From contig JBHLLP010000052.1 in the NCBI GenBank assembly GCA_048885525.1, positions 1 through 23,649 on the forward strand: DNA of 23,649 nucleotides, read 5' to 3'. The position numbers were made by a program, and so were the translations under genes. How positions within the stretch are numbered: the stretch's first letter is position 1; each line of letters starts with the position of its first letter. Below, one piece after another: positions 7,453-18,883 of this stretch. This DNA is from Candidatus Hermodarchaeota archaeon. Lineage in GTDB: Archaea > Asgardarchaeota > Lokiarchaeia > Sigyniarchaeales > SOKP01. The notes beneath the pieces are model-generated. The model worked only from the letters and a program-made list of their open reading frames with translations, made no database searches and had not been told where the DNA came from.

Positions 7453-8124
7453 TTATAGAAGATTTGCAAAGATACTAAAACCACCAATCCATAAACAGAA
7501 ACCTTGGACAAAGCAAAAGATCATTATAATAAAGGCAATAGGGGGCCAAGATAGAAATTTTGATACTTTCTGAAGTGTTCCAATATAAAATTTAGCGGTA
7601 AGACCCACTAAAATCGTTACAATGATAAATATTATTACAATAGCCCATTTTACTACCTTTGTTCCTATTAAATTCGTAACAGAATCCGGAATTATTAATG
7701 CAATAATAAATGCTGTGGCAGTTCCTGCTAAAAGTCCTAAAATGCTAGAAAGGGGTAAATCTGAAATTGGCTTGAAGAACATGGCTATACCAATAATTAT
7801 TAAGAAAATAGATGTAAAATGGTTTGCTTCATCTGCCGTAACTGCTTCATATTTAAAACTTGGAGGTATATCCAATATCAAACTGACTACACCACTCCAA
7901 ATAACGAAAATCCCTAGAATTAATCCTACATATGATAATCCTCTAAGAAATTTTGTAACATTAAATTGCTCCTCCACTTTTTTTTTGGTGAATGAGCCTC
8001 TTCGCTTCCTTTCAAATCCTAACCAAGTTATTGCCATTGCTCCACTTAAAACCATCATTATTGCTGCTGATTCAGCAACCCAATCAAAAAAACCTCGGAT
8101 TACATCCCAATAGTCAAATAGCAA
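7453..8124 (-). CDS. Hypothetical multi-pass membrane protein
   Basis: 223 aa, about 6 TM segments, TTG start; probably co-transcribed with 7065-7343. Confidence 0.75.
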   Translation of the reverse strand: MLFDYWDVIRGFFDWVAESAAIMMVLSGAMAITWLGFERKRRGSFTKKKVEEQFNVTKFLRGLSYVGLILGIFVIWSGVVSLILDIPPSFKYEAVTADEANHFTSIFLIIIGIAMFFKPISDLPLSSILGLLAGTATAFIIALIIPDSVTNLIGTKVVKWAIVIIFIIVTILVGLTAKFYIGTLQKVSKFLSWPPIAFIIMIFCFVQGFCLWIGGFSIFANLL

Positions 8125-8241
8125 TTAAATCACTTTTATGAAAGATTTAAATTAATTAAAAGTTGGATTTTGATATTAAAAATTTAATGAAAATTTGGTT
8201 TAAAAAAATAATAAAAATGTATTAATTTCCTTAATTGCTTC

Positions 8242-8249
8242 TTTATATA
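8242..8249 (+). promoter_or_regulatory. Putative TATA box for small ORF 1 (probably a leaderless mRNA)
   Basis: TTTATATA ends about 27 nt upstream of ATG 8276, the usual archaeal TATA-to-start spacing. The AT-rich background lowers confidence. Confidence 0.4.
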
Positions 8250-8275
8250 AAAAACTCTTAATTGTAACCAAACTA

Positions 8276-8428
8276 ATGTCAGAATGGAAAAATAAATTAG
8301 ATAATGATATTAATGAATCCTATTACAATGAGATTCGCTGTACTGGATGAGGTATTATTGACGGTTTTATCACATTTATAAAAAATATAAAAAAACGACG
8401 TCAAAAAAAAAAAGTAAACAAAAATTAA
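8276..8428 (+). CDS. Candidate 50-aa selenopeptide 1 (in-frame TGA at 8348-8350, CxxU)
   Basis: MSEWKNKLDNDINESYYNEIRCTG-(TGA)-GIIDGFITFIKNIKKRRQKKKVNKN-TAA, followed directly by structured element 1. Confidence 0.55.
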
Positions 8429-8435
8429 ATTAAAA

Positions 8436-8502
8436 AATCTCAAGGAATAGATTATAAAATGTTAGGATCTAATCCTGTGAATTCCGTGTAGAATTCGAGA
8501 TT
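8436..8502 (+). ncRNA. Structured 3'-UTR element copy 1 (SECIS-like candidate)
   Basis: Outer stem AATCTC/GAGATT; hairpin AGGA-A-TAGATT [ATAAAATGTTAG] GATCTA-A-TCCT; second hairpin GAATTC[CGTGTA]GAATTC. Confidence 0.6.
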
Positions 8503-8662
8503 AAAATAAACAATTTTAATCGATTTTATTGTTAATTAAAATTAACATCAATTTTTTTATAAAAAATGCTTCCATATAATTGAGTTTTTATTTTTTATAA
8601 ACACTATTCTTTTATTATTTATTTCTCTTTGATGAATCAGTAAAATTAAAGGTTTTTAAACA

Positions 8663-8800
8663 ATGGAAGATCAAGAAGATCATTTGAACCTTGAGTTAGA
8701 TGATGATTGTTATAGTACCAGTTGAAATATGTTAACGATGTGGTACAGAAGAGCACAAAAAATCCAAAAAATGCGAGAAAAACAAAAACAAGAAAAATAA
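8663..8800 (+). CDS. Candidate 45-aa selenopeptide 2 (in-frame TGA at 8723-8725, CxxxxU)
   Basis: MEDQEDHLNLELDDDCYSTS-(TGA)-NMLTMWYRRAQKIQKMREKQKQEK-TAA, followed directly by structured element 2. Confidence 0.55.
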
Positions 8801-8807
8801 TCTAAGA

Positions 8808-8871
8808 ATCTCAAAGAATTAAATCGATAAATGCTAGGATTTAATTATAGGTTCTGCAAGAGCCTTGAGAT
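8808..8871 (+). ncRNA. Structured 3'-UTR element copy 2 (SECIS-like candidate)
   Basis: Outer stem ATCTCAA/TTGAGAT; perfect 9-bp hairpin AATTAAATC [GATAAATGCTAG] GATTTAATT; second hairpin GGTTCT[GCA]AGAGCC. Confidence 0.6.
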
Positions 8872-17797: not shown

Positions 17798-18883
17798 TTA
17801 ATCTGGTACGGATATTGGATAATTACCATATTTCTTTCTGATATTATCCATTGCAATAAATCTGCCAACCGTTACAGCTGGATGAATACTATGTCCAGAA
17901 CCAAATAGATATCCCCCACCTGGTGCCAATTCACGTATTAATCTTTTAGAATATTCTTCAATTTCAGAAATTTCTCCCAATGCTAAAGATACAGGGCTTA
18001 CATTTCCAGAAAAAGTTATTCTATCCCCAAATTTCTCGTGAAGTTTAAAAATATCATAATCAGGATTGTTAGTAGTTGGTTCAATTGGATTTATGACATC
18101 AACGCCACACTTAATAATATCTTCAAAAATTTCTAATATATCACCATCAGAATGAAGCATGATTTTACAATCACGTTTGTGAGCGGCATCACATACTCGT
18201 TTTAGCCAAGGAAATACATATTTATGAAAATATAGAGGTTTCATAAACAAACCATTCTTGAAACCATAATCATCCCACAATAATACCATTTGAGCATCAT
18301 TTTCTGCAAATATTTTAACAATTTCAACCGTGAAATTTCCATAATCATCAAATACTTTTTTAGCTTGTTTAGGGTGTACAAGTATTCTTGAAAAGGTTTG
18401 TAATCCAAAACCCTCTAAGGGTCCTTCTAAAATGCTTGCGGTTGCTGGAATTGAAAAAACCTCGTCATTAAGCTCTTCTTGGGCTTTTTTACCATTGAAA
18501 AATTGTTTTAATCGTTCTTCATAATGGGGATCTGGCTTTTCCCAACTTTCATAATCTTCAAAGGATTTTAAATAACCACCTTGATATGCTAATATTAAAG
18601 TTCCATCTTTTTGATTCTCTAACTTTATTATCCGACCATACTCATCAACATATAATTTACCAAGTTTAAGAGATTTTCGAAGTAAGAGACTAACATAACT
18701 TAACACTAAATCAATTTGGACTTTTCGAAAAAATTTATACATTATTTGATAACCTCGACCACCACTAGGATCGACTCCAAAATGTCTTACAATCGTATTA
18801 TTTGTAAATGCACTTTCAAAAGCTGGAACTCTGTCGGGTTCTTCATGATTTATAGCTTTTAATACTCTTTCTGGTGCTTTTAT
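17798..18883 (-). CDS. Uroporphyrinogen decarboxylase / MtaA-like family protein, apparent ATA start
   Basis: The frame extends 47 codons upstream of the listed ATG to give (M)KAPERVLKAINHEEPDRVP, the family N-terminal motif. Also DDYG, HSDG and GGGYLFGSGHSI. An AGGGG SD-like sequence precedes the ATA. Confidence 0.85.
   Translation of the reverse strand: MKAPERVLKAINHEEPDRVPAFESAFTNNTIVRHFGVDPSGGRGYQIMYKFFRKVQIDLVLSYVSLLLRKSLKLGKLYVDEYGRIIKLENQKDGTLILAYQGGYLKSFEDYESWEKPDPHYEERLKQFFNGKKAQEELNDEVFSIPATASILEGPLEGFGLQTFSRILVHPKQAKKVFDDYGNFTVEIVKIFAENDAQMVLLWDDYGFKNGLFMKPLYFHKYVFPWLKRVCDAAHKRDCKIMLHSDGDILEIFEDIIKCGVDVINPIEPTTNNPDYDIFKLHEKFGDRITFSGNVSPVSLALGEISEIEEYSKRLIRELAPGGGYLFGSGHSIHPAVTVGRFIAMDNIRKKYGNYPISVPD

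Follow-up and report, generated by a model that had tools for sequence, protein, structure and literature searches.

What does a Y-shaped RNA structure do directly behind each of two very short open reading frames (ORFs) that carry an in-frame TGA? The question is raised by contig C52, analyzed here over its whole length of 23,649 nucleotides (the window) and belonging to a Lokiarchaeia genome of 3.58 Mb (29% G+C, 99% completeness), whose closest public relatives are the MAGs Loki_b31, Loki_b32, bin41, and AMARA_1S (Promethearchaeota/Promethearchaeia archaeon). A sequence-only reading of this DNA had described the structure as a duplicated three-stem element, either a new recoding element or some other 3′-UTR motif, such as a stabilizing one; the element was found in both copies as described, on the plus strand (Table 1). 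The answer favored here, at a probability of roughly 0.8, is that the two copies, El1 and El2, function as SECIS elements of a subclass without a kink-turn and serve two unreported families of selenoproteins.

Table 1. Mini-genes, RNA elements, and upstream blocks of the locus, in window coordinates
Feature	Position	Strand	Remarks
A/T-rich block 5′ of ORF A	8230..8275	+	includes ..TTGYTTYTTTATMTAAAAAAC..; conserved in alignments
Mini-ORF A	8276..8428	+	50 codons and TAA; in-frame TGA at 8348-8350 (predicted Sec, codon 25)
El1	8436..8502	+	Y-shaped 3′-UTR element with three-way junction
El1 outer helix	8436-8441/8497-8502	+	
El1 J1	8442-8443	+	AA
El1 main helix	8444-8453/8466-8475	+	
El1 apical loop	8454-8465	+	12 nt, AUAAAAUGUUAG
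El1 J2	8476-8478	+	
El1 side hairpin	8479-8484/8491-8496	+	loop CGUGUA
Block 5′ of ORF B	8575..8662	+	includes ..TTTTTATTTTTTATAAAC..; conserved in alignment
Mini-ORF B	8663..8800	+	45 codons and TAA; in-frame TGA at 8723-8725 (predicted Sec, codon 21)
El2	8808..8871	+	second copy of the element; Y-shaped 3′-UTR element
El2 outer helix	8808-8812/8867-8871	+	
El2 J1	8813-8815	+	AAA
El2 main helix	8816-8825/8838-8847	+	
El2 apical loop	8826-8837	+	12 nt, GAUAAAUGCUAG
El2 J2	8848	+	
El2 side hairpin	8849-8854/8860-8865	+	loop UGCAA
El2 J3	8866	+	

The two copies share one plan. AUCUC/GAGAU forms the outer helix, the main helix runs without a break for 10 bp and carries the apical loop, and a side hairpin, capped by a loop of the CGCAA/CGUGA type, lies 0-1 nt from the outer helix. 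The main helix of El2 consists of nine pairs plus a variable basal pair, which is G·A in this genome and A-U, G-C, or G·U in orthologues. The loop-closing stem had been given as 6 bp with compensatory changes; the covariation holds, and the helix is longer, at 10 bp. Of 62 apical loops, 50 have 12 nt, 11 have 11 nt, and one has 10 nt; their 5′ half is A-rich with an invariant AAA, and 58 of the 62 end in UAG at the 3′ side. The description of this hairpin as flanked by GAA does not survive the alignment, as the GAA lies inside the main helix and the A-A mismatch responsible for the flanking look is private to this genome. Covariance models R1 and R2 score El1 at 90-94 bits; a model built from El1 orthologues alone detects El2 at 50 bits, and R2 scores El2 at 73 bits. 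T-rich tracts follow both elements on their 3′ side.

Minimum free energy folds of El1 and El2 are exactly the Y shape, with z-scores of -3.8 and -3.2, respectively, against dinucleotide shuffles, none of 200 of which folds as stably as either element. The reverse strand of El2 folds poorly (z = -0.9), and the plus strand is assigned because G·U pairs are frequent and the stability is strand-specific. When 20 orthologues of each element were aligned by MAFFT blind to structure, 94.1% (El1) and 95.5% (El2) of cells were paired, with double changes at five and six pairs, respectively; sliding the partners by 1-3 columns as a control left only 21-60% paired. RNAalifold recovers the same three helices from 82 copies, and main-helix variants in distant genera include GGAGUAAAGC/GUUUUAUUCC, CAGUUAAUUC/GAAUUGGCUG, and UCUUCAAAUC/GAUUUUAAGA. 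The structure conservation index (SCI) is 0.72 and 0.83 for the elements and 0 for neighboring coding sequence; no conserved structure was found in the coding sequence before and after each UGA (alifold energy 0), and the elements are the only conserved RNA structure in the transcript units of about 230 nt.

The outer helix, present in both copies as first described, is practically invariant in sequence rather than covarying, so the argument for it is one of complementarity and conservation alone. An apparent covariation in this helix was traced to El2 rows that stood one column out of register, and was not counted. By its covariation the fold of El1 and El2 is a real structure, and the earlier suggestion of selection on RNA structure in a 3′ UTR is borne out by the main-helix covariation, the slide controls, and RNAalifold.

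The position of the elements ties them to UGA codons. Each begins 7 nt past the stop codon of its mini-ORF, and the distance from UGA to element start is 88 nt for ORF A/El1 and 85 nt for ORF B/El2. The 600-nt locus with both mini-ORFs and both elements is found in most genomes of the genus at 66-81% DNA identity, and R2 finds elements of this type in 104 of 131 genomes of the family, a Promethearchaeia (Lokiarchaeia) family, in 10 of its 13 sampled genera; none was found with R2 and strict filters in 19 genomes from the order's three other families. The fold is supported by covariation in over 100 orthologous copies, all from MAGs of this one family. In 78 named MAG loci the elements have a convergent UDP-glucose dehydrogenase gene as their neighbor, and in other genera each R2 match is again 3′ of an A-type or B-type UGA ORF. 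A scripted search of the 78 loci placed an ORF with a C-x(2-4)-U motif upstream of 76 of 82 element copies, the TGA being 73-93 nt before the element. In the whole 3.58-Mb genome R2 reports (E < 0.001) only El1, El2, and the 3′ UTR of a PrxL selenoprotein gene. The sequence-only reading had named copies behind ordinary genes and stems without covariation as evidence against itself; because every copy found lies after a UGA-containing ORF and the stems covary, neither was seen.

Both mini-genes are present in MAG bin41, whose record is cited as the largest archaeal selenoproteome (PMC13188914, a 2026 review). Three more element copies, one of the El1 type and two of the El2 type, the latter with ORF B, lie at a second locus (L039; G006:C1:189978-191487) in one complete genome of the genus, where the ORF A copy is mostly masked by a run of N.

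The genome carries Sec machinery. Its tRNA-Sec (anticodon TCA) scores 63.6 bits against a gathering score of 47 bits and adjoins the gene for SepSecS (385 bits). As lokiSECIS elements do, El1 and El2 lie in the 3′ UTR after a gene with in-frame UGA in a genome with Sec machinery, and their upper helix and loop fall within the sizes of that class (helix of about 9 bp, range 7-15; loop of about 11 nt, range 8-20).

Among the alternatives, the one that survives best is that the structure is conserved for another job, such as 3′-end formation, protection from exonucleases, or binding of a regulatory protein, while Sec insertion is directed otherwise. The elements do lack the kink-turn core of the published Asgard and eukaryotic SECIS models, their sequence-invariant outer helix suggests sequence-specific recognition, and T-rich tracts lie behind both. 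Something else would then have to direct Sec insertion, however, and the units of about 230 nt hold no further conserved structure, nor is there a canonical SECIS nearby: R3, a covariance model of canonical SECIS, finds none, and a hairpin at 8138-8175, 5′ of ORF A, that mimics a lokiSECIS (AUGA, 9-bp stem, 12-nt loop, GA) is a chance match in A/T-rich DNA, since it is absent from all 18 orthologous loci. It also speaks against this alternative that in the whole genome the element is confined to the 3′ side of UGA-containing ORFs from three gene families, and that it has its apical loop and side hairpin in common with bona fide SECIS elements. This alternative is judged improbable, and with it the earlier suggestion of a mere stabilizing motif, which is the less likely reading.

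A SECIS function presupposes that the UGAs are read through. The predicted ORF A protein starts with MSEWK and continues through C22-T-G-U25 and GIIDG to a hydrophobic stretch and a basic tail; that of ORF B has an acidic N-terminus, C16-Y-S-T-S-U21, NML.MWYRR, and a basic tail, with xML.MWYRR conserved after U in its orthologues. In a plain MAFFT alignment of 20 loci both TGAs are unchanged in all 20 orthologues of the genus, and for both ORFs every orthologue examined keeps the frame open past the TGA as far as a conserved stop region. The peptides after the TGA (GIIDG..IKKR in A and ML.MWYRRA in B) are conserved across about 10 genera, indels after the TGA are multiples of three, and variability by codon position increases from second to first to third, after the TGA as before it. 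A profile of the ORF A protein (A7) matches in 107 of 134 genomes of the family, with exactly one TGA in every match; in 400 genomes of the phylum it gave no convincing match outside the family. No convincing Cys-containing homologue of ORF A was found across the phylum, and so a classic Sec/Cys pair is not available in support of the Sec reading. The mini-ORFs belong to no Pfam family. A homology between ORF A and ORF B was considered and set aside (hhalign probability 13%), the Sec positions nonetheless aligning. From these patterns both TGAs appear to be read through, and the mini-ORFs are evidently translated.

The opposite view, that the UGAs are ordinary stops of ORFs of 24 and 20 residues, or that there are no genes here at all, with El1 and El2 as SECIS relics or non-coding RNA genes, could appeal to the tiny size of the ORFs, their absence from the annotation and from Pfam, and the lack of a Cys-form homologue. 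An ordinary stop would leave unexplained the conserved open frame beyond it, with its conserved residues, its indels in threes, and the same codon-position variability on either side, and covarying helices retained in about 10 genera are not what a relic would show. The view is therefore considered very unlikely.

In many orthologues (L013, L014, L015, L017, L019, L021-L023, and L025) ORF A is 6-7 codons longer, ending ..KIKLKNLKE* (orthologous to window 8426-8453), and its UAG stop lies within the 5′ arm of the main helix (GGAGUAGAUU). With the stop inside the helix, coding sequence and element overlap by about 14 nt. This arrangement is compatible with Methanococcus, in which the SECIS may directly follow the coding region (PMC9622424).

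Conserved sequence also precedes the mini-genes. The A/T-rich block before ORF A is likely an archaeal promoter region, and the conserved block before ORF B suggests that ORF B has a promoter of its own, in which case each mini-gene and its element would be a separate unit. The divergent intergenic region at 8150-8275, between ORF A and a 223-aa ORF (7453-8124, minus strand, without Pfam match), is unusually conserved across the genus (for example ..GGTTTAAAAYWATAAYAAAAAYATATTTATTTCC..); its conserved sequences may be promoter or regulatory elements.

Whether El1 and El2 might be standard elements in disguise can be judged from the canonical lokiSECIS of the same genome. A pattern search (AUGA, 9-bp stem, 11-nt loop RAAAAUNNUAG, stem, GA or AA) finds these downstream of HdrA, of VhuD-like genes, and of some other UGA ORFs, with loops that include AAAAAUGUUAG and AUAAAUUCUAG. 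At the canonical loci L002-L008 an outer (basal) helix is always joined by a side hairpin on the 3′ side, whose loop is UGUGA, UGCAA, or another YGNRA-like sequence; the canonical element of this genome thus forms a three-way junction, one arm of which holds the kink-turn. Because all canonical copies have it, the three-stem shape is the normal SECIS architecture of this genome. No description of this architecture for lokiSECIS was found in the main text of the published accounts consulted.

Neither form is convincingly recovered by a covariance model of the other. With the El1-orthologue model no canonical copy is reported at E up to 10. R3 was trained on five canonical sequences (training members 75-82 bits) and scores a held-out canonical element on contig C1 at 43 bits; it does not find another, the VhuD-linked L008 on contig C5 with its 12-nt loop, at E up to 10, and is narrow, since it misses this left-out member. 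With this narrow model El1 goes unreported at E up to 10, and the 27.8 bits given to El2 are about the score of an unstructured A/T-rich spacer at 17769-17822 (27.4 bits).

The kink-turn consists of a C helix, a 3-nt bulge, and tandem sheared G·A/A·G pairs. El1 and El2 have no tandem G·A in any conserved register, and their consensus main helix is continuous. A GA_[G/A]A core flanking the loop-bearing helix occurs in one of 62 copies at offset 0 and in none after 1-3 pairs are peeled off, in keeping with the sequence-only reading, which had noted by eye that an AUGA/GA core is lacking; the would-be G·A/A·G positions covary as Watson-Crick pairs (G-C, A-U, G·U), and this genome's canonical elements, used as controls, do have the core.

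A standard kink-turn lokiSECIS that has been misread, or a kink-turn in another register or within the junction, is likewise very unlikely. It could draw on an AUGA in the 5′ arm of some orthologues (L010, L011), on the fit of Huang's loose GA_[G/A]A model somewhere in 29 of 62 copies, and on the R3 score of El2. The loose fits, however, fall at inconsistent places, and their helices compete with those supported by covariation; the R3 score is matched by the unstructured spacer just mentioned. Huang's loose eSECIS-like descriptor was set aside as evidence for a kink-turn, being too permissive at 29% G+C and giving fits that clash with the covarying helices.

A dispersed MITE-like repeat or a generic intrinsic terminator, which two similar copies 370 nt apart with terminal inverted complementarity might bring to mind, is highly improbable, as there are only two strong and one weak copy in 3.58 Mb, dozens of MAGs show the elements in synteny next to the gene for UDP-glucose dehydrogenase, the loop sequence is conserved, the stems covary, and there are neither flanking target-site duplications nor a G+C-rich stem and U-run. 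A structural-descriptor scan of the whole genome for Y shapes gave 72 matches, mostly noise, and recovered the known elements, but is too noisy to serve for discovery; one further candidate from it, C41:19905-20000, was rejected because there is no convincing UGA ORF upstream.

The weak copy belongs to the PrxL selenoprotein gene (...NIN-U-PFC...), whose 3′ UTR gives an R2 match of 37.5 bits at C27:19359-19434 (locus L031:1501-1576). It is a Y shape without an AUGA_GA core, with a 9-bp helix and a 12-nt loop (AAUAAAAGCGAG), and the genus conserves it. A neighboring family has the same kind of fold behind the PrxL homologues of two complete genomes (L199:1405-1492, minus strand, and L200:1983-2070, plus strand); there the helix again has 9 bp and the loop 12 nt, the side hairpin covaries, and there is no kink-turn core. 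From these features we infer that the PrxL gene uses the kink-turn-less form of El1 and El2. In a published description, by contrast, the lokiSECIS elements of PrxL have an AUGA (PMC4989117), with which the present finding seems to conflict.

Canonical AUGA_GA elements were also seen at C1:79762-79833, C70:461-532, C35:26518-26590, and C40:22979-23048, behind ORFs absent from the published Asgard lists: one has two neighboring U residues (..HADUUADV..), one is a small membrane ORF (..VLAUGNRI..), one is a gene on C35, and one is a small Cys-rich ORF on C40.

A mechanism can be proposed for the favored reading, in which El1 and El2 are SECIS elements. Two short mRNAs would each encode a mini-selenoprotein, ORF A with C-T-G-U and ORF B with C-Y-S-T-S-U. 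With the ribosome at the UGA 85-88 nt upstream, the element would bring in the Sec-specific elongation factor and its Sec-tRNA(Sec), either by direct contact or by way of an adaptor, and the UGA would then be read as selenocysteine. Since the kink-turn is missing, recognition would have to rest on features that both SECIS classes share; these are the AAA...UAG apical loop, the upper helix of 9-10 bp, and the junction with its GNRA-like side hairpin. It is slightly more probable than not that cells of the Lokiarchaeia hold two SECIS classes side by side, a eukaryote-like one with the kink-turn and a three-way-junction one without it, the latter used in at least three selenoprotein families (the two mini-selenoproteins and PrxL).

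If this is true, the Asgard Sec machinery needs no kink-turn and reads the AAA...UAG loop, to which the junction and the GNRA-capped side hairpin may contribute; the kink-turn would serve as an add-on, perhaps one for proteins of the L7Ae type, and the accepted picture of how the eukaryotic SECIS/SBP2 system arose would change. The two classes in one genome form a natural experiment, because the loop and side hairpin that they share are the features open to an Asgard SECIS reader. Published Asgard SECIS models require a GA quartet, and about 15% of Asgard selenoprotein genes lack such a structure (PMC11227280); a second form, supported by covariation and invisible to GA-quartet searches, bears on both the definition and these genes. 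Seven Asgard selenoprotein families are listed (PMC11227280), and a review adds none (PMC13188914). Neither mini-proteins A and B nor a SECIS class without kink-turn was found in these published accounts, so that two candidate mini-selenoprotein families are missing from the lists.

SECIS classes tested in archaea and eukaryotes all depend on a kink-turn or a kink-turn-like loop (PMC4989117, PMC11881835), and for this reason the continuous main helix of El1 and El2 is unexpected. A comparison with the other classes shows what is shared and what differs.

Eukaryotic SECIS elements (type I) are bound by SBP2 via the kink-turn. El1 and El2 have in common with them the 3′-UTR location, unpaired adenines in the apical loop, and, it is inferred, action at a distance on an upstream UGA; they differ in having neither kink-turn nor AUGA, in their shorter helix, and in the three-way junction. 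Asgard archaea are not known to have an SBP2 homologue (PMC4989117, PMC11227280).

With the SECIS of methanogens (PMC9622424, PMC11881835) the elements share a 3′-UTR hairpin close to the stop codon and one to three mostly adenine residues (J1) between basal and upper helices, and the distance of about 88 nt from UGA to SECIS is the same as in fruA of M. maripaludis (PMC9622424). In contrast to the methanogen elements, El1 and El2 have no conserved GAA/A asymmetric loop and no G-C clamp, and they possess a long A/U-rich upper helix with a large conserved loop, whereas the methanogen loop is not conserved. The kink-turn-like GAA/A loop is essential in methanogens, and a lokiarchaeal SECIS was non-functional in M. 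maripaludis (PMC11881835). The GAA that had looked reminiscent of a SECIS is plain helix sequence, paired in orthologues, and Huang's eaSECIS-like GAA_A descriptor fits only three of 62 copies, all in the side hairpin and none in the main hairpin.

Rfam SECIS families, a comparison that the sequence-only reading had proposed, give no match to the elements even at E up to 10, a result of little discrimination given that canonical lokiSECIS controls are likewise unmatched. The bacterial SECIS is a hairpin within the coding sequence, immediately 3′ of the UGA; here neither UGA is followed within 85 nt by any conserved structure (alifold energy 0, SCI 0).

The nearest likeness is to the lokiSECIS, or Asgard eSECIS-like element (Mariotti et al. 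2016, PMC4989117; Huang et al. 2024, PMC11227280). Both lie in the 3′ UTR directly after the (predicted) selenoprotein coding sequence, and both have an outer helix, a GNRA-like side hairpin, and an upper helix of 9-10 bp under a loop of 11-12 nt that is A-rich on its 5′ side and ends in AG (apical motif RAAAAUNNUAG), as in type I lokiSECIS. The difference lies in the core, 5′-GGAAUGA...GA-CU-3′ in the canonical element and 5′-GGA(A/G)U...AUUCC-3′ in the continuous helix of El1 and El2, the AUGA/GA quartet and the C-helix of 2-3 bp being replaced by Watson-Crick pairs (5′-GGA...UCC-3′). The outer helix varies among canonical copies and is invariant AUCUC/GAGAU in the El1/El2 type. Of the earlier proposal of a new recoding element, recoding stands as the best reading, and the novelty does not: El1 and El2 are clearly related to the lokiSECIS, as a variant of it rather than a recoding element of another kind.
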